From: Chiloscyllium plagiosum
Taxonomy: Eukaryota
Assembly (NCBI RefSeq): GCF_004010195.1
Contig: NC_057744.1
Span: 28,830,365-28,894,364, forward strand
DNA length: 64,000 nt
Direction: 5' to 3'
Made by a program: the position numbers and the translations under genes. This document shows, piece after piece, positions 2,405 to 61,539 of the stretch (within the stretch, counting starts at the first letter, position 1; each line of letters begins with the position of its first letter). The notes under the pieces were generated by a model, which worked only from the letters and a program-made list of their open reading frames with translations, had not been told where the DNA came from and searched no databases.

Positions 2405-2557
2405 GAGAAAGTGAGGACTGCAGATGCTGGAGATCAGAGCTGAAAATGTGTTGCTGGAAAAGCGCAGCAGGTCAGGCAGCATCCAAAGAGCAGGAGAATC
2501 GACATTCAGGGCATTCCTGAAGAAGGGCTCATGCCCGAAACGTTGATTCTCCTGCTC
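2405..2557. mobile_element. Penelope-derived short inverted-repeat insertion (family A) with hammerhead ribozyme motif
   Basis: 15-bp TSD AATATCTATCACAAG at 2390-2404 and 2558-2572. + strand CTGAAGA-A-GGGC-TCAT-GCCC-GAAAC-GTT at 2517-2544. Partial inverted arms. Confidence 0.85.
2517..2544 (+). ncRNA. Minimal type I hammerhead ribozyme motif (core intact)
   Basis: CUGANGA box, 4-bp helix II GGGC/GCCC, GAAA box, loopless palindromic helix III ACGU, NUH triplet GUU. Activity untested. Confidence 0.65.
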
Positions 2558-3424
2558 AATATCTATCACAAGTCTTGAGGTATTGACGTAGAGAGACTGT
2601 GATGTTCTGAGGCAACAACACGAAGATGGGGTCTTTTTTTAAACTCTCAAAATTAAAATAGAACATACTAGGCCAAAAGCAGCATATGTAGAAATAGAAT
2701 ATGTTTGACTCCAACGCCAAATTGTGAAGTGTAGTTGGGGCTGTGGACTATTCCTGCTGCAAGTCTAAACAGGACACATAGTGTATAACTAATTCAATGC
2801 TTATTGTTCAGTTTCCTCAGGATACGGTCATTGTTCTAAATATGTCACTAATTGTCATTTCTGAATGAATATTTGCAGCACAGGTGCCTGAATTTAAACT
2901 TCTCTACATCCGCCCCACCCCTTGCATTAGTCAGGTTCCAATTGTCTGGAATAGTTCCTAAGAAAAGATCTAAACTTCCTGACATTGTAAAGAGTAAATG
3001 AGTTAAAGGTTTCACAGTTGAAACAGTCACCATGATCCCATTAACTTGAAAAGACCATATTGTTGGTTAACATCTTTCATGTCATGGCCATCAAAGGCAA
3101 CTGTGCTTGACCTTCACCAACAATAGTGAAGTTTTGTTAACTGTTAAGGTGAAGTACAGGAGTCTGTTTCATTGTTCGAAATCAGAACCTTACCATCTTC
3201 CAAAAGGTTGGCTCACATTCAGACTGCAGTCTACTGGAAAAGAAATGAGTGGAGGCATAATTCCAACATGCTTACGTCTACTGGTGGGATGTTGCGTCAG
3301 CATTCCTTCCAAGATATTCCATCACAGAGAACAAAGAGAACAGCAAACCCATATGATCAATGCACAGGGATACCTGCAAGCTAATCATCACAGCTAGAGT
3401 ACTGTGAGCAATTCACCATACCAT

Positions 3425-3545
3425 ACCTCAGAGTAACTGGTCTTGGAAGGAGTGCAGTGCAGGTTTACTAGGATGATACCTGGATGCCGAGGATTAAACC
3501 ATGAGGAAAGGGTAAACAAACTGGAGTGAGTTTTCCCTCCAGCAG
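3425..3545 (+). mobile_element. Old CR1 3'-ORF fragment
   Basis: ttggaaggagtgcagtgcaggtttactaggatgatacctgg resembles the CR1 LE.VQRRFTRMIPG coding segment. Confidence 0.6.
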
Positions 3546-3559
3546 AATATTTTACCTGA

Positions 3560-5140
3560 TGTGGTAATCCCTTGCTATTGCTGTTGCATGAAAATTCAGC
3601 AAAGCAAAAATCTTGCATTGTTGCTCGACACTTAATAATCGTTGATTTGGTGGTACATGCCATATGCTCTACTAGACTGTTTGAGTGTGATCACTGGTGT
3701 AATAATATAATATTGGCCACTTCCCACTTAGTTTGATGTCTGGTACTAACCATTCTGGAATTCTGAAAAAATTTAAAATTGCAGTTGGCATGCTCATTGT
3801 GTTGCTATGTCAAGAAATTTCAGAGAATTAATTGACACAAGGATGTTATCTTCCTCATGCATTGTGAATAGGCCTGTTATTACTTTAGTCCAAGGAATGG
3901 ATGGAGTATCGTACGGATATAAAGGCTCCCTCTGCTGCTGAGGTTGATGTGTTTGGTGCATCTCACATGCATTCACGAGTCATTGATTATCCTGATACAT
4001 CTCTTAGCAGTATATAGATTTACATGCGAAATGTCTTGTGTGTGTTCAACATCCACATGTTCTTGGATAAAACAAGGACATGATATGTGGTATATGCTTT
4101 TGGTATTAGGATTCGTTTGACCTTGAAAATGGCTTCTTATGATATACCCAGTTTGTCTCTGTATAACCAAAATGAGTGAATCTTCTCAAACACACCTTTA
4201 ATACTGTCAAGCCATCTCTGGCTGACGATCTTTTATGACTCTTGAAGTTGCTCACCTTCAGCAGTTGCCAACTGCAACTGTTCACACTGGCACTGGCCAA
4301 AGTGTATCCAATGAACCTTGAGGATATCTTCAACTTCACAATCAAGAGCAGCAGTGTGTAGATCAAGAGGAATATCTTGGGCCTAGTGTGGGTTAGATAA
4401 TCAGCTCGGTATGTCAGACAAAATTATCCTGATATCAGTCTTATGTCTCACTTCAAAGGCACATCCTTGCAAATTATTGGCTGATTTGATTGCATCACAT
4501 TTGTTCTGTCACCTTGGTTGCGATTTCAATCTTATGAACTGTGGCTATACTGAGATCTGTGTACACTGATAGTCCTGCTATTGCTGGACTGTTGGTATCT
4601 ACCTGGTAGAAGATTTTAGGAAGCCAACCTGAACTTGCCTATTAGCACTGCAGTGTGATTCTGCCAATGTACAGAATTGATTATTCTTGTATGTTGTGAA
4701 ACAGTCACTTGTAGGATGTACCAGAGTGCCACTTGCTGAGGAACAAGTCTTTGGTGTGTACAGCCCTGCCTTTTCAGGATATGATCTTGATGTTTCTAAA
4801 AGCTTCTGATTGCCTTATACCATCCACATGGTATGTCAGGTTAACAATATGGAAAAATTGGTCATCTTCTGAAATTTGTCTTTTGTTTGGTTGACTTTGA
4901 ACCTCATTGATGCCTCATGCTTTACAGATAGCAAGGATCTCTGTACAGCTTTTGGGTAGGTGCTGCAAACTGCAATTGTTGTCAACTTTGTTGGTTTGGT
5001 GCACTTTGCTCAACCTAGCATCAGGTTGCACCTAAAGCATGGAACTGTTGCTGGCATGCCACCATGCCTTCGTACTTCTGTCCATGACCAAGTATACATC
5101 GATCGTATATATCTTTCCCAAAAAGTTTTCTCTTTGGCTA
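3560..5140 (-). mobile_element. Degenerate Ty3/Gypsy pol remnant (RT-RNaseH-integrase order)
   Basis: Minus ORF 3794-3976 (CEMHQTHQPQQQREPLYPYDTPSIPWTKVITGLF) matches the Gypsy integrase Zn-finger/core junction. Flanking sequence is heavily decayed. Confidence 0.65.
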
Positions 5141-5232
5141 TTTTCATTTCTGATTCTTACATCCCACTACCTGTAAAAACTTGACTCCATTCATCCAGTT
5201 TCACCTTTTCTGTTGCATCTGTTCAAATGATG

Positions 5233-5455
5233 GGTCAAAAAGTGTGGTGCTGGAAAAGCACAGCTGGTCAGACAGCATCCAATGAGTAGGAGAGTCGATG
5301 TTTCAAGTATAAGCTCTTCATCAGGAATTCTTGATGAAGAGCTCATGATCGAAACATCGGCTCTCCTGCCTCTCGATGCTGCCTGATCTGCTGTGCTTTT
5401 CCAGCACCACACATTTCGACTCTGATTTCCAGCATCTGTAGTTCTCATTTTCTCC
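5233..5455. mobile_element. Penelope-derived palindromic insertion (family A) with degenerate hammerhead motifs on both strands
   Basis: About 95-bp arms symmetric around GAATTC (5325-5330). TSD TCTGTTCAAATGATG (5218-5232) versus TCTGTTCAATTAATG (5456-5470), 13/15 identical. Confidence 0.85.
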
Positions 5456-5781
5456 TCTGTTCAATTAATGCAAACTTCCATTCTGGCATTTCTGATGTGC
5501 CTTCTTTTTTGTCCGTCAACCTAAGATTCCCACTTAGGTTAATAGGGCCCCCCCACTGTGTCTGATCCATTTCAGGTGTTCCTCTTTTACCCCTCCTCCT
5601 CCCTCCCAGAAAGTTTCCCCTCATCATTGCCTACCACCCTCTCAATCTCCATGTTCAAAAGATTGTCCTTTGCCATTTCTGTCACCTCTAGCATGATGCC
5701 AACTGCAAACATATTTTCCCCTGCCCTTACTTCTGACATTACAAAGGGATGTTCCATCTGTGTGGCTACAGTGTATTCCAT

Positions 5782-5965
5782 GCTGGAAATGTGTTGCTGG
5801 AAAAGCGCAGCAGGTCAGGCAGCATCCAGGGAACAGGAGAATCTTAAGAAGGGCTTATGCCCGAAACGTCGATTCTCCTATTCCCTGGATGCTGCCTGAC
5901 CTGCTGCGCTTTTCCAGCAACACATTTCCAGCTCTGATCTCCAGCATCTGCAGACCTCACTTTCC
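5782..5965. mobile_element. Penelope-derived palindromic insertion (family A), young copy
   Basis: Perfect 16-bp TSD CTACAGTGTATTCCAT at 5766-5781 and 5966-5981. Near-perfect ~60-bp inverted arms enclose ...AAGAAGGGCTTATGCCCGAAACGTC. Confidence 0.9.
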
Positions 5966-6776
5966 CTACAGTGTATTCCATAGTCATCCTTTTTCTCAGG
6001 CACATATCCATACAAGTGCAGGGAATGGAATACATACCCTTTGGTCTCTCTTCTAATTATTCTGGGACCCAAACATGCTTTCCAAGTGAAGTAGCAATTT
6101 CCTTCTATTGTTTTCAGTCTAGTGTATTCTATTCAATATTAATGATGCAGCCGCCTCCACACTGAGAACAGCAAACAAAAACTGGATGGCCGCTTTGCAG
6201 AAAGCAACTATATTCGGTTCACAGGCACAATTCCAAACTTTGTGTCATGTGTCATTTCAATTCTCTATCTTGCTCTTATTCTGACCTTTCTATCTTTGGA
6301 CTGCCACATTGCTGCAATGAATCTCAATACATGCATCTTTCAAACAGGCACTTCCTAGACTTTGGGAAGCAACAGTCAGTTTATCAATTTTAACCACAAC
6401 CTGCATCTTTTTTTTTGTCTTGCTGTTTGAGTTTCTTCAGATCACATTGTTTATTCTTTCACTTTGTATTCACATGGCTGCTATGCAGTGTCCACAGTTC
6501 AATTAGATGGCTTTGGTTTCCTTACTTTGTCCACTATCATTCCCTTTGGCTTTTCTGTCATGAAACTTTCTGACAGTTAATCCCTCTTTGTCCTCTACCC
6601 TATCATATCCCTTTCCTTTCTTTCTCCTAAGTTGACTTTTACTTGTTCCAGGCAATTGTATTTCTATCTTTCCTCGGTTCTGAGGACAGGTCATTGACTT
6701 GAAACAGTGACTATTTCTCCCCTTGACCAGCTGATTATTTACAGCATTTTCAGTTTGCTTACAAATTTACAGCATC

Positions 6777-6974
6777 TATGTCAAGATAGGATCTAAAGTC
6801 TTGCAAGTGAACAGCAACTGGCTTTATCGAACATAACTTCTGTGTATACAGAGGTTAGTAAGAGAGGACATCTCGTCTGGATTTAATCTGTTGCACGTGA
6901 CCTAACATCACTCTGCCATAGTTGCTTCCACACATAAGTATCCAGGATAAAGGTATAATTCCCTTTACTCTACA
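6777..6974 (-). mobile_element. Short solo-LTR-like insertion
   Basis: 198 bp flanked by a 5-bp duplication GCATC (6772-6776, 6975-6979). Ends TA(TG mutated?)...TACA. Splits the PLE tail cagcatctgcagta. Confidence 0.5.
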
Positions 6975-7558
6975 GCATCTGCAGTATTTTTTTTAATGTT
7001 TGCATCTCTGAACCCAATGTTTACTTATAAGTCTTGCAGGTCTCTTTTTCTACTTCATTAGCTTCAAGAAATCCTGTGATCATGAAAGGTGCTATGTAAA
7101 TGCAAGTCTTTCTTTCAGGTAGTTTTATAACAAAGAACTGTTGTATCTTAATTGAACTGGAGGTTTCGCAGAAAGAGATACCAAAGACTGCTGTCCAAAA
7201 CTGGGCATTTGCTGACACAGACATTTTAGGATTCAGTTTGCATTAGGCTGCTAGTTGTTAAGCTGATATTTAAAGGAAGTTATTATCCCATTTTATGGAC
7301 TATATTTTACAGGTCTTCACAATGTATGATGGAAATGGTTGTCCTATGCCACAATTCTAATAATGTGCCAGTTCAAAGGCCTCAAATAACAGAGAGCTCA
7401 GCAATGGAGACAATCAGTTACCAACATAAAAGAAAAATGACCTATTTGTTGTCTCAGGTCTAATCGCCATGCTTGATTGTCAAGATGAGCACAGCAAGGC
7501 TTACTTATCTTAGGCTCATGTCATAAAGTGAAAAGTTAATTGAAAACCCATACATGCA

Positions 7559-7597
7559 ACACACACACACACACACGCACACACGCACGCACACACA
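7559..7597. repeat. (CA)n microsatellite
   Basis: acacacacac...cacgcacacacacag. Confidence 0.9.
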
Positions 7598-8214: not shown

Positions 8215-8525
8215 GGCGGCACGGTGGCTAAGTGGTTAGCACTGCAGCCTCATAGTACCAAAGACCCAGGTTCAATTCCCGCCTCAGGCAACTGTCTGTG
8301 GAGTTTGCACATTCTCCCTGTGTCTGTGTGGGTTTCCTCTGGGTGCCCCGGTTTCCTCCCATAGTCCAAAGATGCGCGGGTTAGGTAGATTGGCCATGCT
8401 AAATTGCCCATAGTGTTATGTGCATTAGTCTGAGGGAAATGGGTCTGGGTAGATTACTCTTTGGAGGATCAGTGAGGACTTGTTGGGCCGAAGGGCCTGT
8501 TTCCACACTGTAGGGAATCTAGTCT
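8215..8525 (+). mobile_element. HE1 SINE (V-SINE)
   Basis: Box A GGTGGCTAAGTGG, box B GGTTCAATTCC, V-domain ggagtttgcacattctccc, HER1-like tail ggcctgtttccacactgtagggaatct. Confidence 0.92.
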
Positions 8526-8659
8526 TATTGCCCAGAGGACTGTTGAGAGTCAACCGTGCTGTTGTGGTTGGAGTCACATGTAGGCTAGACTGGGTAAAGA
8601 TGGCAGTTTCCTTCTCTAAAGGATGTTAGGAAGTACCCATAAGGTTCACTAACAGTCGA

Positions 8660-8858
8660 AAGTGAGGACTGCAGATGCTGGGGATTAGAGTCAAGAGTGT
8701 GGTGCTGGAAAAGCACAGCAGTTCGGGCAGTATCCAAGGAGCAGGAAAATCGACATTTCGGGCAAAAGCCCTTCATCAGAAATGCCCGAAACATCGATTT
8801 TCCTGCTCCTCAGATGCTGCCTGACCTGCTGTGCTTTTCCAGCACCACACTCTTGACT
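8660..8858. mobile_element. Penelope-derived palindromic insertion (family A), hammerhead core on minus strand
   Basis: TSD CTAACAGT(C/T)GA at 8649-8659 and 8861-8871. Minus strand 8752-8779 reads CTGATGA-A-GGGC-TTTT-GCCC-GAAAT-GTC. Confidence 0.85.
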
Positions 8859-9770
8859 TCCTAACAGTTGACAATAATTTCATGGTCATCAATAGACTCT
8901 TAATTCAAATTCAACAAAAATCTGGAGGTTTGAACCTGTCTCCCCTGAATGTTGCCTGAGTCTCTGGAGACTAATAGTCTAGCAACAATACAACTAGGCC
9001 AACACCTCCTATGTTAAGAATGACTATCAAAAATATCAGGTTTACCCATCCTTTGAAATTCATTCCATTGTTAGATAGGTCTTCAAGACAGAAGGGAAAA
9101 TAGGAGTTATTTAAGTAGCCTACTCCTCTGAGTTTGAAGTACATATTAAATAATCACTTTAATAGCATAAAAGAAATGAAAAAATTCTGTTTAATTTGAT
9201 ATGTTGAATAATTCAAAATATTTTGATAAAAATTAGTGAATTGTAAGGAATAGGCCAGCACATCCCAGGCAGCAGCATTCAGCAACATACACTTTTGGCA
9301 AGTACTTCAACAGATAAGTTTCGAATGAAGTGAATCTTGCAACAATAAGTCTCAGCAAAATCATACAATCTTTACTGGGTTTGTGATGTAAACACTGGTC
9401 CTTGGAGGGTTAATGGATGGGGGCAGACACTCCTAATGTCACTTTAATGTGCAGTAACATTATTTTTTCGCTTCCTTTCTCTTGAGTTAAATGCTGCCCC
9501 CTGCCCTGGGGTCGTGAGAAAAACAGTGGGTAAGTTTCTCAACAGCAACACAGCTTACGTCCGTACAAAAAGCAAACATACCAATGTCAAGCAGAAACTT
9601 TCCATAATCTGTCACAAGTATGCACTGGAGACGTACACAAGCTGAGCTGTCCCTAACTCCAGACATCCCATTTGGAAAAGTGTAACATCTTTGGGAAAGA
9701 ATGTCAACATGGTTTAATTAATGGGCAAAAGTAATGACCAGTTTGATTGAATTCTGCAAAGGGGTTGAAT

Positions 9771-10108
9771 GGTGGCACAGTGATTAGCACTGCTGCCTCA
9801 CAGTGCTGGGGACTTGGGTTCGATTCCAGCCTCAATAGCTGACTGTCTGACGTTTGCATGTTTTTCCCTTATCTGCATGGGTTCCCTCCAGGTGCTCCAG
9901 TTTCCTCCCACTGTCCAATGATGTGCAGGTGAGGTGGATTGGCTATGCTAAGTTGCCCATAGTGTCCAATAGGCTAGGTGGATTAGCTATAGGAAATGCA
10001 GAGTTACAAAGATGTCGTGAGGGTGGATGGGATGCTCTTCAGAAGGTTGGTGTGGACTCAATGGGCCGAATGGCCTGCTTCCACCCTGTCGGGATTCTAT
10101 CATTCTAT
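9771..10108 (+). mobile_element. HE1 SINE (longer subtype)
   Basis: ggtggcacagtgattagcactgctgcctcacag...ggttcgattcc; tail gggattctatcattctat. Confidence 0.88.
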
Positions 10109-10109
10109 A

Positions 10110-11295: not shown

Positions 11296-11431
11296 GGGGA
11301 GACGATGGCCTATTTTTGTTCTCACTGGAATGTTAATACAGAGGCGTCGGTTCAAATCCCACCATGGCAGAAGATGAAATTTAAATTTAATAAAAATCTG
11401 GAACTAAGAGCCTAATGATGACCATGAATCA
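11296..11431 (+). mobile_element. tRNA-headed SINE (second family), 5' part
   Basis: ggagacgatggcc...ggttcaaatcccaccatggcag...gatgaccatgaa is the reverse complement of the head at 8880-9008. Confidence 0.7.
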
Positions 11432-11560
11432 ATTCCTGGTAAACAGCTTATGCCCAAAATGTTGAATCTCCTGCTCCTCAGATGCTGCCTGACCCCCTGT
11501 GCTTTTCCTGCACCATCTTTTCAACTCTGACCTCCAGCATCTGCAGTCCTCGTTTTCTTG
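11432..11560 (+). mobile_element. Penelope-derived single-arm insertion (family A), degenerate hammerhead
   Basis: 9-bp TSD CATGAATCA at 11423-11431 and 11561-11569. Starts at the palindrome-centre sequence ATTCCTG. Confidence 0.8.
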
Positions 11561-12329
11561 CATGAATCATGCAATGAATAACAATTAATGTTTTAAAACC
11601 ATTGACTGTGATAGGAATTGATGCACTTTTAAAAACAAGCTACTGAAACTGATTGTGTATTGTGCTTACACTGCTGTTTTGTTCAAGAAGTGACGGAAGC
11701 TGTTTGCAGATGGCCTGGTACCAAGATTTTATGCAGACAGATTTGGTCAGTAAAAAGTAGCTGATGGGTTAATGCAGTGTGATTATTCATGGACACCAAA
11801 GGTCATCAGTCAAACAGTGACCTTGATTGGTTTTTAAGTAGTAGAATAGGTGTGGATGTTGCAGTGAAGAGCCTTCGGGCCATTGAAAGACAGGTTGTAT
11901 GTCTCCGTCTCTGCAGTAAAAATACCTGATTCCTGAAGAGACCAATTTTTTTTCTCCAGTCAGTTGCTGTAAGTTATTGCCTTTAACCAGTAACTAAGAG
12001 ACTTTGCAGTTAGTGTACCAATTGCCTCATGTAATGAAGCGAAGGAACCTGGAGAAAAGAGACTGAAGAATGGAAAGTCCTGGCAAGTCAAAAGAATTAT
12101 CTCAGCAAACACTGAGAAATAATTCTATTAGTTTGCAGTATTTTGTACCCTCCACCATGAAAGCAATGTTTTATTTTTGTCTGTCTGCGAGCGTTTAATG
12201 GTTTAAAAGGAGCTTAGATTTGTAATTAACCAAGTTGTGTGTTGATAGCTCATAGTTCATACTTGTGATTAGAATTTACTTACTTATGACACATAGTCAT
12301 TCTTCTGTTTCTTTGAACTGTGGCACCAT

Positions 12330-16766: not shown

Positions 16767-16827
16767 CATTAAGTACAGCCAGTGCTGTCAGTATTGAAGT
16801 CCAGAGTGTCAACTGCACGGCGTTCAT
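16767..16827 (-). CDS. First coding exon of an unidentified secreted/membrane protein (signal peptide MNAVQLTLWTSILTALAVLN-G)
   Basis: Kozak-like ACCACCATG, 61 nt encoding a hydrophobic 20-aa leader, then a consensus donor G|GTAAG (phase-1 intron). Non-repetitive sequence just downstream of a CpG-rich promoter. Confidence 0.7.
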
Positions 16828-17650: not shown

Positions 17651-17729
17651 ATGCTATTATTTCAGTGATTTTTTTAAAAATTCTTTCATGGAATTTACTT
17701 TTGTTATCTGTAATGAAAACAGGTTCAAT

Positions 17730-18030
17730 GGGGGTGGCACAGTGGCTCAGTGGTTAGCACTGCTGCCTAACAGCACCAGGGTCCCAAGTTCGATTCCAAC
17801 CTCAGATGACTGTCTGTGTGGAGTTTGCACATTCTTGCCGTGTCTGCGGCGGTTTCCTCCCACAGTCCAAAGATGTGCAGGTTAGGTGAATTGGCCATGC
17901 TAAATTGCCCATAGTGTTAGGTGCATTAGCCAGAGGGAAATGGGTCTGGGGTGGGTTACTCTTCGGAGGGTCGATGTGGACTGGTTGGGCCGAAGGGCCT
18001 GTTTCCACACTGTAGGGAATTTAATCTAAT
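17730..18030 (+). mobile_element. HE1 SINE
   Basis: Full A/B boxes, V-domain and (TAATC) tail. Confidence 0.92.
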
Positions 18031-18069: not shown

Positions 18070-18228
18070 AATAAAACAGAAAAACTGCAGATGCTGAAAA
18101 GCTGAAACAAAGATCAAAATGGCTGAAGAAACTCAACAGGTCTGGGCACCTGTGGAGGGAAAGCAGAGCTAACATTTCGGATCAACAGATACTGCCGGGC
18201 CTACAGATTTTTTTCTGCAGTTTCAGCT
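18070..18228. mobile_element. Penelope pLTR-derived fragment (family B) with partial inversion
   Basis: actgcagatgctg...aaactcaacaggtctgg...ctaacatttcgg, then the inverted cagatactgcc arm. Resembles 37700-37908. Confidence 0.55.
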
Positions 18229-22639: not shown

Positions 22640-23246
22640 TAGAATCCGTGTAGAGGCATAGAGACGTACAGCACGGAAAGAGACCCTTCGGTTCAACTCG
22701 TCCACGCCGACCAGATATCCCAACTCAATCTAGTCCCACTTGCCAGCACCCGGCCCATATCCCTCCAAACCCTTCCTATTCATATACCCATCCAGTATCC
22801 TTTTAAATGTTACAATTGTACTCATCTCCACCACTTCCTCTGGCAGCCCATTCCACACACGTACCACCCTCTGCGTGAAAATGCTGACCCTTAGGTCTCT
22901 TTTCTATCTTTGCCCTGTCACACTAAACCTATGCACTCTAGTTCTGGACTCTAGACCTTGTCTATTTACCCTATCCATGCCCCTCATGATTTTATAAACC
23001 TCTATAAGATCACTCCTCAGCCTCCAACACTCCTGGGAAAGCAGCCCCAGCCTGTGCAACCTCTCCCTATAGCTCAAACCCTCTAAGCTTGGCAATATCC
23101 TTGTAAATCTTTTCTGAACCCTTTCAAGTTTCACAACATCCTTCTGATAAGAAGACAACCAGAATTGCACATAATATTCCAAAGGTAGCCTAACCAATGT
23201 CCTGTACAAATGCAACATGACCTCCCAACTCCTGTACTCAATACTA
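22640..23246 (-). mobile_element. HER1/CR1 LINE 3' end
   Basis: IEYRSWEVMLHLYRTLVRLPLEYYVQFW...LERVQKRFTRILP in the minus ORF. Confidence 0.92.
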
Positions 23247-23540
23247 AGGGTGGAAGTAGGGTATTTGGCCCATTGATTACACACCACCCCTTCAAACAGC
23301 ATCCCACCCAGATGCCCACCCCTCCTCCATACCTGTATTCCTGCATTTCCCATGGCCAATCCACCTAAGCTGCTCATCTTCAGACTGTGGGAGGGAACTA
23401 GAGCACCCAAAGGAAACTGATGTAGACATGGGGGGGGAATGTACAAACTCCACACAGACAGTCACCTGAGGCTGGAATCGAACCCAGATCCCTAGCACTG
23501 TGAGATAGCAGTGCTAACCACTGAGCCACTATGCTGCCCC
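23247..23540 (-). mobile_element. HE1 SINE
   Basis: Reverse-complement HE1 with head ...gctaaccactgagccactatgctgcccc. Confidence 0.88.
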
Positions 23541-23589
23541 CATAATCAATGACATCTAGATTTGGATCCAAATTGGGTGCCCCTTCACA

Positions 23590-23784
23590 ATGTGGAGTTT
23601 GCACATTCTCCCCCGTGTCTGCGTGAGTTTTCTCCGGGTGCTCTGGTTTCCTCCCACAGTCCAAAGATGTGCAGGTCAGGTGCATTAGTCAAAGGGAAAT
23701 GGGTCTGGGTGGGTTACTCTTCAGAGGGTCGGTGTGGACGTGTTGGGCCAAAGGGCCTGTTTCCACACTGTAGGGAAACTAATC
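23590..23784 (+). mobile_element. HE1 SINE, 5'-truncated
   Basis: Starts at the V-domain tgtggagtttgcacattctcccc and ends at the tail. Confidence 0.88.
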
Positions 23785-24159
23785 TTTAAAAAAAACTCTT
23801 TTTAATAACATCAAAATCCATTTTAACAATAATACCAGGACACTAGCTTTGGTCATTTAGCTTTACATCTGGGACATGTGTCATCTGATCCCTGACTGAG
23901 CAGTAAATCACAAAGGGAACGGGCTAAAGACTGATATTGGATTGTCGCCAACATATCCAACTCCTCCTTTACATTAGAAAAAGATTATTAGAATGAGCAT
24001 GTTTTCTGGATTACAATCAATAGTACCCTCTTGAACTTTGAGAAGAAATCCCAGTGGAAGGAAGACTGCAGAGGCCCCACAATCCTGTCTTTCCCTCCAA
24101 CCTGGACTCAGGCCGATATAGCATGCCCAAAGTGTGTTACACGTACATAGCCTCTTGGT

Positions 24160-26019: not shown

Positions 26020-26530
26020 AAAGGCAGCCTGTTTGACTGTCCATTTCACTCCCCCCACCACCAATATACATTGGCTGCAGTGAATACTACCTACAAAATG
26101 CAATACTGTGACCCACCAGGACTTCTTCAAAATCATCTTCCAAACATGCACCCCTTACCAAGTAGAATTACAAATGCAGCAGATGCATGGGAATAGCCAC
26201 ACAGCAGATGCATGGGAACACCCTAACAACAGATGCATGGGAACACATCCACAAGAGATGCATGGGAACATCACCACAGGAGATGCATGGGAATAGACAC
26301 ATAGCAGATGCATGGGAACATCAGCACTTAAAAGTTCCCCTCCAGGTCACACAACCTTCTGGTTTGGAAATACATGATTATTCTTTCACTGTTGCTGAAT
26401 CAAAATCCTGGAACTCCCTCCCTGACCACACTGGTTACATGGATTGCAACAGTTCAACATAATCTTCTCAAGGACAATGTGGGATGGGAAATAAATGCTG
26501 ACCTGATCAGTGATGCTTATATCACATGAA
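26020..26530 (+). mobile_element. CR1/L2-superclade LINE (second family) 3' fragment
   Basis: Reverse-complement match to 18690-19100 (tcaaaatcctggaactccctccc...gggatgggaaataaatgctg). A shorter copy lies at 25380-25500. Confidence 0.75.
26181..26318 (+). repeat. 25-bp-period minisatellite: six invariant AGATGCATGGGAA cores with 12-bp variable spacers
   Basis: Cores start at 26181, 26206, 26231, 26256, 26281 and 26306. Confidence 0.9.
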
Positions 26531-28148: not shown

Positions 28149-28467
28149 AGAATCATAGAATCCCTAAAGTGTGGAAACAGGCCATTTGGCCCAACGTTCC
28201 ACACCAACCCTCCGAAGAGTAACTCACCCAGACCCTTTCCCTTATCCTATTACTCTACATTTACCCCTAACTAAGGCACCTGAACACTATGGGCAATTTA
28301 GCATGGCCAATTCACCTACCCTGCACAGCTTTGGATTGTGGGAGGAAACCAGATCACCCAAGGTAAACCCACACAGACACGGAGAGAATGTGCACCCGAG
28401 GCTGGAATCGAATCTGGGTCCCTGGTGCTGTGAGGCAGCAGTGCCAACCACTCAGCCACCATGCCAC
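28149..28467 (-). mobile_element. HE1 SINE
   Basis: Reverse HE1 with tail atcatagaatccc. Confidence 0.88.
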
Positions 28468-28489
28468 TCATTCATCTAATGAATTCTAC

Positions 28490-29202: not shown

Positions 29203-29205
29203 GAC

Positions 29206-34784: not shown

Positions 34785-35160
34785 CTATCAATAGATCAGC
34801 GACACATATCCAGCACTTGGAATTCATGTATTTGAAGCTTTGTCCAACAAACTTATTTTTCATTTATTTTATAAGGATTGCCGTGTTTCTCAAAATAATA
34901 ATAATTTTAATCACAAAATTCCTACTTGACCAATACTCCTTTGGTAGTAAACAGGGAAGGAATTGCTTTGATCTCAAATCTCCATTAAAAACTCCTCCTT
35001 CTCCCTGGAAACAGACTGAGGCCAAGCCAGTCTGCCTGCAACCTTAGCTTTACATTTGACCATGAAATGAGCCTCCAACCTCATGTTTGTGCCATCATTA
35101 AGACATTTTCTTAATATTGCCTGATTCACCCTGTCTCAGCTAATCTGCTGTTAAAATCAT

Positions 35161-35504
35161 AAGTTGAAAAGTGTGGTGCTGGAAAAGCACAGCAGGCCAG
35201 GCAGCATCCGAGGAGCAGGAGAATCGAAGTTTCAGGCATAAGCCCTTTTCAGGAATGAGGCTGTTGTGCCAAGCGGGTTGAAATAAAAGGTGGGAGGGGA
35301 GGAATTTGGAGGAGGGGCACTGGTAATATGTAGGTGGAAGGAGGTGAGGATGAGGGCGATTGGCCAGATAGGGGGTGGGGGCAGAGAGGTCGGGAAGAGG
35401 ATTGCAAGTTAGGAGGGCGGTGCTGAATCCGGGGGTTGGGACTGAGATAAGGTGGGGGGAGGGGAAATGAGGAAGCTGGGGAAATCTACATTCATCCTGT
35501 GCGT
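35161..35504 (-). mobile_element. 5'-truncated Penelope 3' end (family A): ORF C-terminus, UTR and hammerhead pLTR
   Basis: 10-bp TSD TTAAAATCAT (35151-35160, 35505-35514). Minus strand reads MNVDFPSFLISPPPTLSQ, then CTGAAAAGGGCTTATGCCTGAAAC and the family-A arm. Confidence 0.8.
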
Positions 35505-35547
35505 TTAAAATCATTACCACAGTCTACATCACCTTAGATGGCAATTT

Positions 35548-35863
35548 CATAGAATCCCTACAGTGTGGAAGCAGGCCATTCAGCCCATTAAGTCCACACC
35601 AACCCCCTGAACAACATCCATCCCAGACCTATGCCCCTACCCTGTCCCTGTATTTCCCATGTCTAATCCACCTAGCCTACATACAATGGCAATTTAGCAT
35701 GGCCAATCCATCTAATCTGTACATTTTTGGACTGTGGGTGAAAACCCACGCAGACACGGGGAGAAGGTGCAAACTCCACACAGTCGCCTAAGGGTGGAAC
35801 TGAACCCAGGTCCCTGGCATTGTGAGGCAACAGTGTTAACCTCTGAGCGACCACGGCGGACCC
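35548..35863 (-). mobile_element. HE1 SINE
   Basis: Reverse HE1. Confidence 0.88.
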
Positions 35864-37699: not shown

Positions 37700-37908
37700 C
37701 ACAGAAATACTGTGGATGCTGGAAATCTGACACAAACAAAGTGAATGCTGGAGAAACTCAGCAAGTCTAGCAGCATCTATGGAGACAAACACAGAATTAA
37801 TGTTTTGAGTCTGGTATGAGTCCTCATCATAACTTCAGGCTTCTGAAGAAGGGTCACTGGACTGGAAAAGTTAGCCCTGTATCTCTGTCCGTTGATGCTG
37901 CCAAACCT
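37700..37908. mobile_element. Penelope-derived palindromic element (family B), split by Gypsy element 2 and continuing at 43055-43100
   Basis: Inverted arms with CTGAAGAAGGGTCACTGGACTGGAAA on +. The reverse complement of the left arm (37746-37777) predicts the continuation seen at 43055. Confidence 0.75.
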
Positions 37909-43914: not shown

Positions 43915-44500
43915 AAAAATAGAAATTGCTGCAGAAACTTAGCAGGCCGAGTAGTATCTGTGGAGAGAGAAACTTGGTTAATATTTTGGGTGAGGTGACC
44001 ACTCTTCAGAATCGTACTGGAGTGTAGCCAGAGAGGGGGTTCAGTTGAGGTCAGACAGGCACCACCCCAGTAGAAACCCTGACTGCCACAGCAGGTACCT
44101 GTACTTATACGCCCAGCTGGCACCTCAAGCCAAGATCCATAGGACTATATGACCACTCTTCTCGGAAGATTTAAATAAACTTAAAATTGGTGTCTCCTGG
44201 AGTGTATGCAAAAGCAGGTGAAAATGAGTACTGCAGATGCTGGAGATCAGATCAAGATTAGAGTGGTGCTGGAAAAGCACAGCAGGTCGGACATCATCTG
44301 AGGAGCAGGAAAATTGACGTGTCAGGCAAAAGCCCTTCATCAAGAATGGCACTATAATCCAATAGCAGTCCATGACATGGACAAGGGAGATTCCCCACCA
44401 ATAAATCAACCAACATGTTGGTTATGAAGAAGAGTCACTGAACTCAAAATGTTAACTGATTTTCTCTCCACAGATACTGCCAAGCCTACTCAGGGAGTTC
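43915..44500 (+). mobile_element. Family-B PLE insertion: inverted pLTR arm, non-coding body, pLTR
   Basis: Minus arm 43915-44010 ends cttcagaat; plus arm ttatgaagaagagtcactgaactcaaaatgttaact at about 44420-44460. Body is homologous to 60940-61260. Confidence 0.65.
44218..44356 (-). mobile_element. Penelope-derived single-arm insertion (family A)
   Basis: Family-A arm ending gcccttcatcaagaat; degenerate TSD caaaagcag/caatagcag. Confidence 0.75.
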
Positions 44501-44963
44501 AGAAACTTGGGCTCAGCAGTGAGGAAGAGATGTTTTCAGGTCAGAATGTTGTGCTCCTTGGAGAGAAAACTATATAGTGCTTTTACAGGTATGAGTCTAA
44601 ATACTATATATAATTGTGTTCCTATGCATCTGCTGTTTTTAGTTGGCAGAATTTCTACATTGGAGGGTGTAATTGAGGGATACTTTAGACAGTTGGTGTA
44701 GTGCATGTCTAGTAAGTAATTAATTGACAAAGGGGACACTCATCAAGTTGGTTGCTTTGTCCCGAATTCCATCACTCTCCTAAATCATGCTTTGTAGATA
44801 GCAGTCCTTGAAGAGTTAGAAAGTGGGTCACTTGCCACAGACTGCCCAGCCTTTGACCTGCCATGTAGTCACTGTATTTATAGATATTTCCCAGTCAACC
44901 TTCGAGATGCTGATACACAACTCTGGAGCAGTTGGGACTTGAATTCAGCTCTCCTGGCTCAGA

Positions 44964-45174
44964 ATCGAGAGTGTTGTGCTGGAAAGGCACAGCAGATCAG
45001 TCAGCATCTGAGGAGCCGGAGAATAGACATTTCGGGCATAAGCCTCATTCCTGATGAAGGGCTTATGCCCAAAACGTCGACTCTCCTGCTCCTTCGATGC
45101 TGCCTGACCTGCTGTGCTTTACCAGCTCCACACTCTCGACTCTGATCTCCTGCATCTGCACTCCTCACTTTCTC
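44964..45174. mobile_element. Penelope-derived palindromic insertion (family A) inside a short tRNA-like SINE
   Basis: 13-bp TSD CTCCTGGCTCAGA (44951-44963, 45175-45187). CTGATGA-A-GGGC-TTAT-GCCC-AAAAC-GTC at 45051-45078 (G12 mutated). Confidence 0.88.
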
Positions 45175-46632
45175 CTCCTGGCTCAGAGGTAGGGATATTA
45201 CCACTACACTACAAGAGTCCTAGTAACAGTACTTGCATGATTATTTCAGTTACATCTCTGATCATTGTTGACCACAGTATTCTAATGATGGTGACTAAGC
45301 TAGTGGTAATGCCATTAGATGCCAAGGTGACGTGTTCCAACTCATTTTTATTGGAGATAGCCATTATACAAAGCACTTGTGTATGCTGCAAACATCCCTG
45401 CCTGATTTTGCTGCTTCTTTATCTGAGGAATTGTGAATTGAACTATAATCATCTGTTTGTATTCTGCAACCAAGGCAACTTGTTGACACAAGTACTTCCA
45501 TGGCTAGTCAACATAAACTCCCAATGCGATAAACACAATTTCGTTTTTAAAGAGTGTTTTTTAAGAGTGAGAATAGAAGCCCCCAGGGATAGCTTTTAGA
45601 GTCAATGTTATTCCTGTTACATCTTCTTCAAATTGTTTTGACATTAGCAGGATGTGCCTGTCACAGATCACAGTTTCCCAGATGCTTGAGGTTGCACATA
45701 CACAGCAGCTGTGAAACCACGGGAAATGCAACTGCTGCTTTTGTAAAGGAACTCTGCCTTCCTCTGATTTTTGGCTTTTACACATCCCCAGTTTTAATCA
45801 TTCACTATAAAAAGACATGCTTTTAAATAGCGTGACTCGAAGATCCTTAACCTCCTCCCTAAACCTCTCTACTCCAACACCTTAATGAATATCCTTAGCG
45901 TCTATCTCTGTAACCACACTGATGGTCACTTGTCTTAAGATGTCCTGATTTGCAGGGATGCCCAGTTTTGTCTGATCATCTGTCTGTGAGACATGTTGAG
46001 ATGTTTTACCATGTTAGAGTTGCCACATAAATGTATATTGCTGAAAGAGCTCAAGTGATATTGAGACCCTAATGAAAGGCATTGAGCCTTTGAAGCAGTG
46101 AGCAATTTGGGACATACAGTCCAGGATGGTTCTGGGTTCAAACCTCAGTCTGTCATCAGTCAATTCATCTTAACCAAGGTGCTGGCAGAGAGGCTGCAGT
46201 TGAATTTTGCCAGGATGGAGATTATTGGCCAGTTTTCCTGCTCCTGGGCAATTTCTAGTGACTTGCGGCTGGGACTGCATCTTTGTGGCTGCTGGGTAAG
46301 ACCAGAAATAAACTAGGTGATTATGCCCTTGCAATCAAGTGGATAATTTCCATTCACCATTAACACCTTTAGGAAAGGACAGACAAAAGGAATAATCGGC
46401 AGGAGAGGACAACAGTATTTAGCCTATTACCAAAGTGATCACTAAAAACTTCAGTCAACTTGTCAAATTGTACATTCAGTCTGAAAGAAGGAATAACATA
46501 AAAGGTCTTGCTGATTTGCCACTGATAACTATATAGTGTTAATAGTCATTTTATTAGCAGAGTCAAGATTTCAAAACCAAAAACATAGCATTTCCTGGTT
46601 TATTGAGAGCAAATGGGAGAAATATATCAGTA

Positions 46633-54990: not shown

Positions 54991-55149
54991 GATGGAACTG
55001 GGTTGATAAAGGACTTGAATCTTCTTGAGGTTAAGGTTGGGAACGATCCTTAGAGGCTACTGATGTAACATTGTATTTAACTTTTAGCTAAAAGATAATT
55101 GTAAGATTTTAGATTAAATTGAAAAATTCTAATACTTGTTTCCTTCTAT

Positions 55150-56250: not shown

Positions 56251-56265
56251 AAAATATGTTGCTTT

Positions 56266-56570
56266 GGGCGGCACAGTGGTTAGCACTGCTGCCTCACAGC
56301 GCCAGAGACCCGGGTTCAATTCCCGCCCCAGGCAACTGACTGTGTGGAGTTTGCACGTTCTCCCCGTGTCTGCGTGGGTTTCCTCCGGGTGCTCCGGTTT
56401 CCTCCCACAGTCCAAAGATGTGCAGGTCAGGTGAATTGGCTATGCTAAATTGCCCATAGTGTTAGGTAAGGGGTAAATGTAGGGGTATGGGTGGGTTATG
56501 CTTCGGCGGGTCGGTGTGGACTTGTTGGGCCGAAGGGCCTGTTTCCACACTGTAATGTAATCTAATCTAA
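56266..56570 (+). mobile_element. HE1 SINE (young)
   Basis: Near-consensus, CpG-retaining copy with (TAATC) tail. Confidence 0.93.
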
Positions 56571-56571
56571 A

Positions 56572-57208
56572 CTTGAAAGGCTTCAGAAAAGATTTACAAG
56601 GATGTTGGCAGGGTTGGAGGGTTTGAGCTACGGGAGATGAACAGGATAGGGCTATTTCCCTGCAGCATTGGAGGCTGAGGGGTGTCCTTTGGGAGGTTGA
56701 TAGGGTCATGGACAGATGAATAGGCAAAGTCTTCTTCCCAGAGTAGGGGGATCCAAAACTAGAGGGCATAGGTTTAAAGTGAGAAGAGAAAGATGGAAAA
56801 GGGACACATGGAGCAATATTTTCACGCAGATGGTGGTGTGTGTATGGAATGAGCTGCCAGAGGAAGTGGTGGAGGCTGGTGCAATTACAACATTTAAAAG
56901 ACATCTAATCAATGTGTAACAAGTGCAGCTGTGAGTTCTTTTGTAGAGTAGTATAGTAGATGGTTTATGGTTTATTGTTGTTTGTTATATTTTCATACTT
57001 TTGTAATATTATAGTTTTGTAAAGAAAACTTTTTTCAATAAAAATATTTTAAAAAAGGCATCAGGATGTGTACATGAATTGGAAGGGTTTAGAGGGATAT
57101 GGGCCAAATGCTGGAAAATGACACTAGATCCATTTACAATATGTGATTGGTATACTGAAAAGTTGGACCGAAGGGTCTATTTTCATGCTGTACATCTCTA
57201 TGACTCTG
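56572..57208 (+). mobile_element. HER1/CR1 3' end
   Basis: LERLQKRFTRML...KTRGHRFKVR...WNELPEEVVEAG plus tail ctctatgactct. Confidence 0.88.
56906..57052 (+). mobile_element. A-tailed 3' fragment (L1/Tx1-like) inserted in CR1
   Basis: AATAAA and A-rich end; TSD AAAAG(A/G)CATC at 56896-56905 and 57053-57062 at a TT/AAAA site. Confidence 0.6.
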
Positions 57209-57270
57209 GTAGTGATAGCGTCCTGCTGGAGGTACAGTGAACCCCAAATAATTAATACTGGTAATATTTA

Positions 57271-57573
57271 AGATTAGATTAGATTCCCTACAGGGTGGAA
57301 ACAGGCCCTTGGCCTAACCAGTCCACACCAACCCTCCGAAGAGTAACCCACCCAGACCCATTTCCCTCTGAATGATGCACCTAAAACTATGGGCAATTTA
57401 GCATGGCCAATTCACCTGACCTGCACATCTTTAGATTGTGGGAGGAAACCATAGCACCCGGAGGAAACCCAGGCAGACACGGAGAATGTGCAAACTCCAC
57501 ACAGACAGTTGCCTGAGGCTGGAATCAAACCTGAGACCCTGGTGCTGTGAGGAAGCAGTACTAACCACTGAGA
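57271..57573 (-). mobile_element. HE1 SINE
   Basis: Reverse HE1 with (GATTA)n tail. Confidence 0.9.
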
Positions 57574-60500
57574 CTTTGCAAAAGGGTTTGGAGAAACACA
57601 CCACTACTTGTTTTTTTTTTAAAATAGGGGAAAAAGAATGGAGAAAAATCCAGTCACAGACAGGACGGTGGCAAAAATATCTCAATTTACCAAATTTCCT
57701 ATCTATCTCGGACAGAAATCTGGGATAGAAGTAGTCAAAAATCTGAGCAGAGGCCAAATGTTAAAACAAGCTTGAATTGGATACTGGGAGGAAACTGACT
57801 AGAAGCAAGAATCATTTTAGTCAAATAAACATCTACAACAATTTTTCATAATCTTAACACTCAAAGAAAATAAATGGCTAACCACTGAGAACCCAGCCTC
57901 TCTGACCAGTTGGAAGTTATAACTAGGAAAGTACAGGGAGTAGTGCCGAGTGAGGCTGAAGGACCAGAGTTGTTCTAAATAATTCAATTCTGGAATGGAT
58001 AAGAGAACCATAACCTCTAATTGATTGGGGTGCTCTGCCCAGAATAATAACCCTGGCTGCGGAAGGGATTGAAGACAGTTTCAGCAAAGACTAAGGGTTT
58101 CAAGAGAAGGGAGGTTCTGGAGATGACATTAAAAACTTAAGAGGAGTTCAAAAACTAATAGAAATGACAGAGGGAATTAGCGATGTTTACTTTGATTTAT
58201 TGTTGTCACGTGTACAACAATAAGTAGTGAAAAATTTGGTTTTGAGTAGTACACGCATTTCATCGCAAACAAGGACATACAGATCATAGGGTGCTTAGAA
58301 GAGCGAGACATACAAAAAAACTTGCTTGTTAAAGTTCCAGTCATTTTGCCCTAAAAACCCAGAGCAGTGAAGGATGACTATAAAAGTCAGGACCAAGCTA
58401 GAAATATTCCATTCAGCTACCCAAAGCAGAAGTCGTCTTGATCCTCCTAAATGAAATGCTGGTGTCAAAAAACATCAAAGAATGGACCCTTAGAGAGAGT
58501 TTAGAGAAACTGGACAAACTGAACTAATTCAGCCAAGTTCTGCAGATGTCTGGAGCAAAGCAACCCTTCAGGGTTGGCTGGCTCAGCCAAAGTCACATGG
58601 TTTTACAAAACCTGAGTTTTGGCCAGTAAAGCGTAAAGAGGTCAGAAAAGTGAAGTGACGGATGGAGAAACCTTTACTAAATTAAACAGAAGACTGATAG
58701 TAAGGGAGCTGCCTCACACAAAATGTTACATGACAGTGGTGGCCACTATTTAGCCTATGTACACCAGGGTATCCCACTAGAGATACGGGAGAACAGGAAA
58801 CAGTGCATCCCCCAATAGCAAAATTATGGAAATCCTTACCATAGAAAAATCACCTACAGGCATTCAAAAAAAAAACAAACAGTTCAGATGCTACAATAAA
58901 CTTTCAGGTAGCCAAAACTAGTGTGCAGTGCTTAGTTGAGGAACCAAGAAGAAAGATGGCTAGTTTTCAAGTAGACACGGTTGAATGAGATTCACCCAAA
59001 ATGTAGCAAGTTGAATTCTAATCCTCAGGATTAAATAGAGACACAAAGTTCCCAGGCTTTGCCGGCAAATATGAAAAGGGAGCCTACACCTCTGTTGGAC
59101 AGGTGAGAGGATTGGCTACTTTAAACCTTTTTACACTGCGTGATGTGATTTACAGGTATAATTTTTTGAAGTGTTATTTGTTGAGAGTTTGGGTTTTCTG
59201 GTTGAAGAATTAGCAAGCGATGTTTTCTATGTGTTAGAAGTTAATTATTAATTTTTATTTTTGTAGCTATGGTGACTTTTGAAAATTATATTTTGAAGCC
59301 TGGCTTTCGAGTGAGTCAGGTTTATGGCATAATTATGGACTTTCAAAAAAAAAAATTTGATTGTTCTGTAACCCAGCAAATTAAATACTGGGGACTCAAG
59401 ATTTGTTAAGTGTATTCTAGAATTTCTTTCTTCAGAAAAAGAAAAAACCCATAGTTCGGCCTTTTCATTTGACTTTGAGTGGAGTCTTTGGAATAGGATG
59501 GCTTCATAAAAACAAAGCTCCTGAGAAGCAAAGGATATATGGGGAAACTCTGTTTTACTGGGTGAAGGTATTATTGGTTCCAGATCAAAAGGGATGGATT
59601 TTTTTTAAACCCATTGAGGTATGTTATGAAACCCCCAGTGGAGCCTGTGGGACTTAGAACTGGGTGTCCTGGTCCAGAGGTAGGGGCAGTATTACTGTAC
59701 AAGGCCCCTTTAGAATTGTTGGCATAAAACTCTGAAGAGATTACACAAAACTATATAATTAAGCATGCATGTTACTCAAGAAACTATCTGCAATTCTAGC
59801 CGAAAGGTTGAAGTCACAGTAGACTTAACACTAGTGACCATGTATCTAACACTTCAGTAGGTTTAAGTATTATCTGAGTGATATAGTATGAAATTGTTTT
59901 ACTTCAATTTATAAAAAAAGTGTTTTTGGGATTAATGAAATTACAATTTTACTGTGTTCAGAAATCTTTGATCCTTTAATAAAGTAGCTTGGATTATTCT
60001 ATTTCTTTTGTAATAAGCTTCTGTTTTATTGTGTGAGCAAAACCTGCAACACTGTGTGCTTTTGTTTCAGTGAGAGATCAAAACAACTTGAAAATACCAG
60101 AAACAAGCCAAGTTCATGCAATAGGATTGGACTGGTCTGGTAATAACTGCTACTTTGACCATAGCAATATTTAGTAGGTGGCCACAGAAGTTTCTAAATA
60201 GTTCTACAATTAGTGAAAAAGCCACCATAACCACATTTTAAAAGTAAGAACGCCTGCACCCCTACTGTATGAACAGGAGGTGTAGCTAAACAAAACATTT
60301 TAAAAAGTAGAGGAAAATCCCTGAATTGATAGAGTTGGTAAATCTGACATACCCAGATTTAAAGGAAACATTCACTCTTGGCAAACCAATCTTTCAGAAT
60401 TGGGAGACAGATCTAGAAGGTTCCCAAATAGACCTGACAGGTACTCAACTACCCCCAAAGCTGCTTAGAAAGGTGCCTTACCCAACTGAGAAGCCATAAA

Positions 60501-60939
60501 AAAAAAGCAGCAAAACTAGCCCAATATGGGTCTCCAGAGATAAAGGACTGAACAGGGTCGCACAAAGGTTCCAACTTAGGTAGAAGTCTTAATCAAAGGC
60601 TGAACTTCCGTTGGATTAACAGGGAGCCTGGCTGATCAACACACTGTCTCCAACCTAGGAAGAACAATGAAGATCCCCAAAAAATTCAGACGGTGATCGA
60701 GATGCCTCATTTAGTTGATTAGTTTGTTGCAGGAATGAGACAGCGACCTTAGAGCACTAGAGTCCAAAATGAAATCAGACATGTGTAAACCAACCCTTCA
60801 AAGTTAGTAAGTTAGGAAAAGTCAGTAATCCTCGAAGCTCCAGCACATTTGTAACCACCATAAAGGTACAGCTAAAACCAAGTTAAACTCAGAGTCCAGT
60901 AAAACAGTGGGAATCTACCAGAGGGTAGACATGTGAAGA

Positions 60940-61260
60940 GTAGCCAGAGAAGGAGGTGTTCACGTGAGGTCAAACAGGCATTCTCCCCAGCAGAAACCCA
61001 AACTGCCACAGTCGGCACTTTTATTTAGATGCCTGATTAGCACCCCATCCCACGAGCCATAGGAGAAAGTGGCCACTCTTTAAATTTCCTAAACAATGAA
61101 CTCAAAAGAGGCATCCACGGGAGTATATGCCAATAGTAGACCTTAACATGGACAAGGGAGATGGCCCACAATTAAATCAACCAACAGGTTAGTTCTGAGG
61201 AAGAGTCACTGAACTCAAAACATTAACTGCTTCCTCTCCACAGATACTGCCAGACTAATT
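60940..61260 (+). mobile_element. Family-B PLE 3' end with the same non-coding body as 44010-44500
   Basis: gaggtcaaacaggca..cagaaaccc..actgccacag..catggacaagggaga..aaatcaaccaaca, then AGTT-CTGAGGA-A-GAGT-CACTGA-ACTC-AAAAC-ATT-AACT. Confidence 0.7.
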
Positions 61261-61360
61261 TAGATTTGTCCAGCAGTTTGTGTGTGGATCCTCAGCACTG
61301 AAGAACCTGATGCCATGCTCCTGTGTTCAAGATGATGTTGTAGTGTACACTGCTGAAGTT

Positions 61361-61539
61361 CAGAAGATAGCGAGGATTGCAGATGCTGGAGAGTCAGAGT
61401 CAATAAAATGTGGTACTCAAAAAAGTACAGCTGGTCAGGCAGCATCCAAAGAGCTGGAGAGTTGACATTTCAGGAGGACCCTTCATCAGGACTGCCAAAA
61501 ATGTTGACTCTCTTGCTCCCCAGATGGTTGTGCTTTTTT
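61361..61539. mobile_element. Penelope-derived inverted insertion (family A-like, older)
   Basis: TSD CACTG(C/T)TGAAGTT (61348-61360, 61540-61552). Minus AGTC-CTGATGA-AGGGTCCTCCT-GAAAT-GTC. Confidence 0.75.

Follow-up and report, generated by a model that had tools for sequence, protein, structure and literature searches.

Tiny palindromic hammerhead insertions in the Chiloscyllium plagiosum genome and their relation to the terminal module of a Penelope-like element

Penelope-like elements (PLEs) that carry an endonuclease (EN+) insert as units made of a pseudo-long terminal repeat (pLTR), an adjacent inverted 5'-truncated copy and a tail of 30–40 bp, as described in the passages of Arkhipova (2013; PMC3846280) and Craig (2021; PMC8557442) considered here. 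PLE ends with minimal hammerhead ribozymes, inverted copies and tails are already published. The minimal hammerheads of Cervera and de la Pena (2014; PMC4209133) have a type I topology without loop III, a palindromic ACGU, an extra nucleotide between A9 and G10.1 and a short helix I, and occur mostly as single dispersed motifs with some opposite-strand pairs. In PAc, a Poseidon PLE of Anolis (Frangieh, 2024; PMC11167929), the protein cleaves and extends both strands, two internal reverse transcriptase (RT) starts flank the tail, the RNA template is uncleaved and the targets are T/A-rich. Animal non-LTR retrozymes (bioRxiv 10.64898/2026.07.22.740005) are non-coding, carry a type I hammerhead, derive from PLE pLTRs and form head-to-tail tandem units with a ribozyme in each. 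Here, we describe family A, a group of small hammerhead-bearing insertions in 64 kb of Chiloscyllium plagiosum DNA (contig NC_057744.1, positions 28,830,365 to 28,894,364; the window), and compare it with these systems.

Family A is, with near certainty, the pLTR (a minimal hammerhead plus 'tail') of an abundant RT/GIY-YIG PLE with a Neptune-type linker. Its tiny insertions are probably by-products of this known element class and no new self-propagating unit. The link between family A and the autonomous element is the window copy at 35161, whose 250 extra bases belong to a repeat of high copy number (40 scored out of 3,218 first-look candidates). Loci sharing this extension continue into frames for RT and GIY-YIG. 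In a protein search, 61,612 candidates appeared at first look; the 150 that were scored were 83–89% identical, apart from the query itself. In several of 20 fetched long copies, one frame encodes RT, a C-X4-C-X2-C linker and GIY-YIG, and the 3' untranslated region (3'UTR) and a family A arm come after it. In the single frames of L144 and L152, RVT_1 scored above the Pfam cut-off and GIY-YIG just under it (E=3e-4); the linker lies between RT and endonuclease (EN) in these two loci and in L158. Neptune-type PLEs have a C-terminal GIY-YIG with a zinc-finger-like CX2-5CxxC linker (PMC8557442), which they share with Nematis, and the assignment as Neptune/Nematis-type is made by this linker. A PDB search gave no match at E≤1.

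Positions in the element are numbered from the cut site (C17 of GUC = 0), with C3 at -27, the A of TCATTC at -31 and the long end at +98. A total of 32 long copies, a few of them fetched twice, align across 3'UTR, ribozyme and arm and end where the module-only insertions (minis) end. L157 is a partial tandem in which EN, 3'UTR and module are followed by 1.2 kb of open reading frame (ORF) 5' region and RT; its frame is interrupted by stops and a gap, and the first ATG past the arm is at +136. On the minus strand of L157, a short upstream reading frame starts in the arm and stops near this main ATG. The arm also runs on into the ORF 5' region at 38 further loci, drawn from the 41 additional matches of a query lying 3' of the arm (+68 into the ORF). 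The module thus stands at the end of every long copy, and tandem copies have it in front of the ORF as well. Since it stands at the 3' end of each insertion and in the 5' leader of the next unit, it is a pLTR in the sense of PMC2377424 and PMC8557442. The sequence-only reading of this DNA had recognized PLE-type minimal hammerheads and proposed mobilization by a PLE RT/GIY-YIG, both of which are borne out. Its view of family A as a protein-free separate unit is not upheld, the module being the end of the autonomous element itself.

All nine insertions read from the sequence alone were recovered in the window at their places with BLAST (five natural copies as queries) and a profile search. The same searches gave two diverged relatives of the module from other PLE families, at 37708–37827 (minus strand, with a longer helix II) and 18084–18180 (minus strand). 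The nine insertions are as follows, with positions in the window first, positions in the element signed, and the flanking target-site duplication (TSD) last.

2405..2557: palindromic pLTR insertion; long arm on the minus strand (2405–2514, +97 to -13, without core), short arm on the plus strand (~2512–2557, -32 to +13, core intact, GUU triplet); TSD 15 bp, 2390–2404 / 2558–2572.
5229..5455 (copy 5233): palindromic insertion; arms both to -31, joined at AATT 5326–5329; long arm plus (C3>U), short arm minus (core intact, helix II mismatched); TSD 11 bp with one mismatch, 5218–5228 / 5456–5466.
5782..5965: palindromic insertion; inverted arm ends at +1 (cut site), long arm plus from -27, G5>U; TSD 16 bp, 5766–5781 / 5966–5981.
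8660..8860: palindromic insertion; long arm minus (-32 to +96, core intact), short arm plus (-13 to ~+62); TSD 11 bp with one mismatch, 8649–8659 / 8861–8871.
11432..11560: single arm, plus strand, -31 to +96, degenerate core (A6, G8 and G12 changed); TSD 9 bp, 11423–11431 / 11561–11569.
35161..35504: 5'-truncated PLE copy, minus strand, with ORF end, 3'UTR (to -281) and ribozyme, short-site end at ~+64; TSD 10 bp, 35151–35160 / 35505–35514.
44218..44349: single arm, minus strand, -32 to +98, degenerate core (C3>U, A14>C); no TSD found.
44964..45174: palindromic insertion; long arm plus (-37 to +98, G12>A), short arm minus (from ~-18, without core); TSD 13 bp, 44951–44963 / 45175–45187.
61361..61539: decayed palindromic insertion; long arm minus (-32 to +96, core letters intact, helix II altered), short arm plus from ~-12; TSD 13 bp with one mismatch, 61348–61360 / 61540–61552.

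A TSD of 9–16 bp had been claimed for every insertion. This holds for eight of the nine (15, 11, 16, 11, 9, 10, 13 and 13 bp, three with one mismatch) and fails for copy 44218, for which neither the sequence close to its ends nor the surrounding 4 kb contains a TSD partner. Six of the nine (2405, 5233, 5782, 8660, 44964 and 61361) are head-to-head palindromes with junctions within the ribozyme region, in agreement with the fold-back structure first proposed, and long-arm outer ends lie at +95 to +98. The claim that both strands carry a ribozyme motif is true only of copy 5233, in which one arm has C3>U and the other a mismatched helix II; in the other five palindromes one arm lacks CUGA-GA. 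All 12 core positions are kept in 3 of 15 window arms, and a fourth arm deviates solely by its GUU cut triplet. A strict hammerhead motif matched the window twice (2517–2540, plus strand; 8756–8779, minus strand) and had no match in 100 shuffles. The inverted arm of copy 5782 ends exactly at the cut site, which gives a 9-bp helix I closing the ribozyme (5832–5884, plus strand; z -5.06). This ribozyme is likely inactive because G5 is changed. The same +1 joint occurs at L295.

To place these copies in the 3.56-Gb assembly, 31 large contigs were sampled in 140 stretches of 10 kb placed at round positions (1,344,493 bases, N excluded), and insertions were counted at ≥30 bits. The sample holds 201 insertions, comprising 52 head-to-head copies, 139 single copies and 10 fragments. 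The 191 non-fragments correspond to 142 per Mb (bootstrap 122–163), or about 5e5 insertions genome-wide if extrapolated; 128 of them are minis, 52 extend past -60 and 11 end at N gaps. Short inverted pieces occur in some 'singles', so the share of palindromes is a minimum. The window density (nine per 64 kb) equals 142 per Mb, so the copies form no local swarm, contrary to the first impression. TSDs were found at 36 of the 52 sample palindromes, compared with a control false-positive rate of 24/753 in a wider TSD search. Among 37 TSD-bounded palindromes, three of them from the window and only calls of 12–18 bp included, 29 have T/A-rich TSDs of 14–16 bp. The mode is 15 bp, as compared with the 8–10 bp described for A. 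vaga PLEs. The tail arm ends at +96 to +98, and the outer end of the second arm lies at +48 to +65 in 28 of 34 TSD-bounded sample palindromes. This offset is the 30–40 bp PLE tail (PMC8557442, PMC3846280), and not the variable truncation that the sequence-only reading had assumed. Family A therefore resembles EN+ PLE units in its head-to-head inverted copies, one-arm tail, TSDs, partial tandems, heavy 5' truncation and solo pLTRs. It differs from them in that about two-thirds of insertions are module only, at an order of 5e5 insertions.

The inner ends of the arms show a sharp boundary. Among 233 sample arms (arms at N gaps left out), the end rate per nucleotide was 0.010 near the cut site, 0.009 across helix II, 0.032 from -17 to -26, 0.096 at -27 to -32 (44 of the 97 arms reaching -27), 0.041 at -33 to -40 and 0.010–0.014 beyond. 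Immediately 5' of the catalytic core, between -27 and -32, inner ends are thus enriched ~7–10-fold, with a mode at -30/-31 (p=3e-10 vs the adjacent downstream rate); rates in distant zones range over 0.009–0.016. A simulation of uniform truncation gave no peak (38 calls vs 40.7 expected). Peaks of the end histogram at +18 and +11 are products of the ungapped anchor and divergent families, and no meaning is assigned to them. At the cut site there is no excess of inner ends (4/159 arms end at +2 to 0, p=0.9), which leads us to reject the cut site as the symmetry axis and is in line with the uncleaved templates of PAc in vitro (PMC11167929). The symmetry axes do cluster in the ribozyme as had been noted, the inner ends gathering just upstream of the core and away from the cut site. 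In ORF-bearing loci, the same 6 nt hold the ends of 16 out of 29 arms at risk (p=6e-6); long and short products therefore share the boundary. The passages on EN+ PLE units cited above do not describe such a sharp inner-end mode. A survey of literature on Penelope elements in sharks, pLTR promoters and strong-stop complementary DNA (cDNA), with supplements, Repbase and Dfam outside its scope, yielded no account of this family or of the -31 boundary, and the parts of PMC8969392 and PMC6155905 considered contain nothing specific on the module.

Judged from its sequence context, -31 is likely a transcription start. In 21 of 32 long copies, A(-31) is preceded by TTATCT at a distance of 30 nt, and in 31 of 32 the motif is found no further than 45 nt upstream. 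The boundary sequence TCATTC fits the initiator consensus, YYANWYY. At five loci (L235, L236, L283, L178 and L204), ATTCC at -31 is preceded directly by TG or G in place of the element's TC, the pattern expected from a copied cap and one added base; overall, a G at this position was not significant.

The palindromes are informative about how the arms were made. In 31 TSD-bounded palindromes with a tail arm to ≥+88 and ≤10 extra junction bases, the 5' reach of the tailless arm exceeds that of the tail arm by ≥5 nt in 14, the reverse holds in 6, and the two agree within 5 nt in 11. In these 14 palindromes, each arm has sequence that is absent from the other (up to 99 nt), so a single fold-back cDNA cannot produce them, barring later deletions. 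The joining of two separate cDNAs is well supported by these arm sequences. The arms of one palindrome agree at 208 of 218 subfamily-variable sites, compared with 4,384 of 6,326 (69%) between insertions. Arm identity within palindromes has a median of 0.98 (range 0.81–1.00), and the arms are asymmetric by the tail. Of 34 junctions, 18 have extra bases, 12 have microhomology of ≥2 nt and 4 are blunt or nearly so. Only one junction recurs, in 3 of 30 palindromes whose copies differ in subfamily and length. With junctions almost all unique, the palindromes are built anew at insertion. A CAT/ATG joint between -32 and -13 recurs (window copies 2405 and 8660), and palindromes with arms of 100–340 nt also exist (L241, L228). 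The two-cDNA pattern fits the in vitro mechanism of PAc, with which family A shares T/A-rich targets and would share the uncleaved template, the two internal RT starts on either side of the tail and the extension of both target strands (PMC11167929). PAc belongs to another clade, its ORF starts at helix II instead of the +136 of the main frame here, and the main text of that paper is without mini-palindromes.

Collectively, we consider it reasonably probable that the tiny copies of this EN-positive PLE's pLTR module are dead-end short cDNAs, for which RT starts within the first ~130 nt of the RNA and runs off its presumed 5' end. Transcription would start at about -31 on TCATTC, making the hammerhead roughly the first 35 nt of the RNA. 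As suggested by the TSDs and by the related PLE in vitro, GIY-YIG would nick both target strands ~15 bp apart, and RT would prime on each nick at an internal site, ~+98 or ~+62, of uncleaved RNA. The two cDNAs would end near -31 and be joined with trimming, short microhomology or a few extra bases into a head-to-head palindrome, with its axis in the ribozyme as a result; a lone cDNA would give one arm only. Long copies would result if RT primed at these two sites in the downstream pLTR of a read-through RNA, and inserted ribozymes would then decay without visible selection. A stronger version is put forward only tentatively. In it, the PLE RNA would begin exactly at the hammerhead 5' edge, where self-cleavage would remove the cap, the hundreds of thousands of minis would be integrated 'strong-stop' cDNAs, and the non-nested arms would record two RNA-templated cDNAs per PLE insertion, primed on both target strands.

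Several observations weigh against the dead-end cDNA scheme. The cap-G check was not significant (G before the end in 14/48 vs a 20.6% background, p=0.10). TTATCT differs from a canonical TATA box, and the internal promoter of D. virilis Penelope is TATA-less (PMC2377424). About one-third of arms reaching -33 or beyond end by -40, and 52 of 191 insertions extend past -60. Reads aligned to L157:6600-7700 show no start or end pile-up, a weak observation given fragmented libraries, a depth below 100 outside the arm and a reference that lacks part of the ribozyme, and therefore no test of start or cleavage. Read set X19 gave 2,921 reads on this interval, on both strands and with 94% continuing into other sequence, and read set X20 gave zero reads. 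The supporting in vitro data come from another clade (Poseidon), and post-insertion deletions could mimic some non-nested arms. The boundary also falls on ATT, the preferred motif of the related PAc endonuclease in its own pLTR (PMC11167929), and could be a cut site. It is conceivable, but unlikely, that the same element and two-cDNA joining operate while the site near -31 is not an RNA start, being either an endonuclease cut at ATT or a stall or switch of RT on leaving the folded ribozyme. The coincidence of the boundary with the helix I 5' edge, the lack of a significant cap-G signal and the attribution of PLE end structures to endonuclease resolution by Craig (PMC8557442) speak for this. 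A structural stall, however, would be expected on the 3' side of helix I or helix II, and end rates there are no higher than background (0.009–0.010 per nt); known PLE transcription starts lie in the pLTR (PMC8557442, PMC2377424). The motif conserved 30 nt upstream also argues for a start, as does the fit of the site to the initiator consensus.

The first proposal, an independent ribozyme-centered element transcribed from its own copies and propagating in trans like a short interspersed nuclear element (SINE) or retrozyme, is improbable. It draws on the large share of minis (128/191) with a defined 5' end and their own TSDs, on the intact core and helix II in 63 of 129 ribozyme-spanning arms, and on the chance that a single-arm copy starting at -31 holds an internal promoter. 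Against it, minis share sequence and subfamily variants with the ORF-bearing element, whose copies show the same 5' pile-up, long-armed palindromes exist, junctions are not inherited, ends at the cut site are lacking and the core is no better kept than invariant arm columns. For palindromes, this reading is largely refuted. A SINE-like family with its own masters was considered and is contradicted, among the palindromes, by the single recurring junction with differing subfamily and length. A non-LTR retrozyme was likewise rejected; the window copies are solitary or head-to-head with their own TSD, and not head-to-tail tandem units. It is very improbable that the palindromes in general arose by snap-back of one cDNA self-primed on the ribozyme stems. 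Self-priming has been proposed for PLE inverted junctions (PMC3846280), and the junction microhomology (12/34), the recurring CAT/ATG joint and the possibility of nested arms in 17 of 31 palindromes agree with it. It conflicts with the 14 palindromes in which each arm has ≥5 nt that the other lacks, and young undiverged palindromes with such arms are seen (L085, L235, L094, L228). Snap-back could hold for a minority. That the palindromes are assembly artefacts is scarcely credible. N gaps are frequent at element ends (11/191), and at L105 (C6:50000001-50010000) the flanks are palindromic too, with a private deletion in both arms, possibly an assembly artefact or gene conversion. The TSDs at 36 of 52 palindromes, the sequence differences between arms and their asymmetry by tail tell against such an origin.

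The ribozyme of family A has the minimal hammerhead core CUGANGA-N-helix II-GAAA-NUH without loop III, and shares all the features and the dispersed arrangement listed above for minimal hammerheads. Helix II has 4 bp in the main subfamilies, compared with 7–8 bp in schistosome families (PMC4209133). It is a predicted stem, and rarer families have a few paired changes (GAGC/GCTC, GGGTC/GACCC). The Rfam scan suggested as a check matched no hammerhead family at E≤5, as can be expected for a motif lacking loop III; the only matches were to microRNA hairpins, stayed below gathering scores and reflect the hairpin shape of the copies. In arms spanning the core, non-CpG core positions are kept at 0.95 and family-invariant arm columns at 0.94–0.99, with the CpG positions G12 and C17 down to 0.84–0.87. 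The overall arm mean is lower (0.90–0.91) because subfamily-variable columns are included. The core thus decays like the arm, and no selection is visible on inserted copies. In folded monomers helix II alone is stable, and z-scores are unremarkable. The PAc hammerhead cleaves only with protein (PMC11167929), and dimer cleavage of hammerheads is reviewed in PMC6765202.

A minus-strand exon at 16827–16767 has a start codon (ATG) with good context, a signal-peptide-like run of 20 hydrophobic codons and a GT donor, and is likely a first coding exon. A GC-rich stretch lies beside it at ~16.9–17.2 kb. The proposed placement of family A copies in its intron is plausible; the exon exists, and no second exon was located. 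Folded in the host sense, the four palindromes below 16.8 kb are each predicted to form one long hairpin (-56 to -148 kcal/mol), and long double-stranded RNA (dsRNA) is predicted from them. The predicted hairpins of 5233 and 8660 pair up their cores, and 11432 is antisense. With the cores locked in hairpins, self-cleavage of host pre-mRNA, as suggested earlier, is unlikely.

Other repeats were also found in the window. Two decayed copies on the plus strand (~29.2–34.0 kb and 38.6–42.9 kb) are 76–84% alike, ~8.9 kb apart and have broken frames that resemble gag/pol of LTR retrotransposons. A SINE-like family is abundant in both orientations (8228–8526, 9843–10104, 17728–18028, 23319–23786, 28156–28470, 35550–35862, 56270–56568, 57280–57587 and others). 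Frames at 533–964, 1595–1927 and 22904–23461 resemble RT ends of CR1/L2 long interspersed nuclear elements. A tandem array of 25-bp units lies at 26156–26345.

The value of family A is mechanistic. The formation of the inverted pLTR and the role of the hammerhead are open questions for PLEs (PMC8557442, PMC11167929), and about half a million natural insertions make a large data set. Two of its signals can be tested, the sharp boundary of the inner ends immediately 5' of the core and the arms that are not nested. With one long fold-back element per 25–30 kb, the family would also be a large source of intronic dsRNA. If true, two cDNAs per insertion would account for the tail and the inverted pLTR throughout the PLE class.

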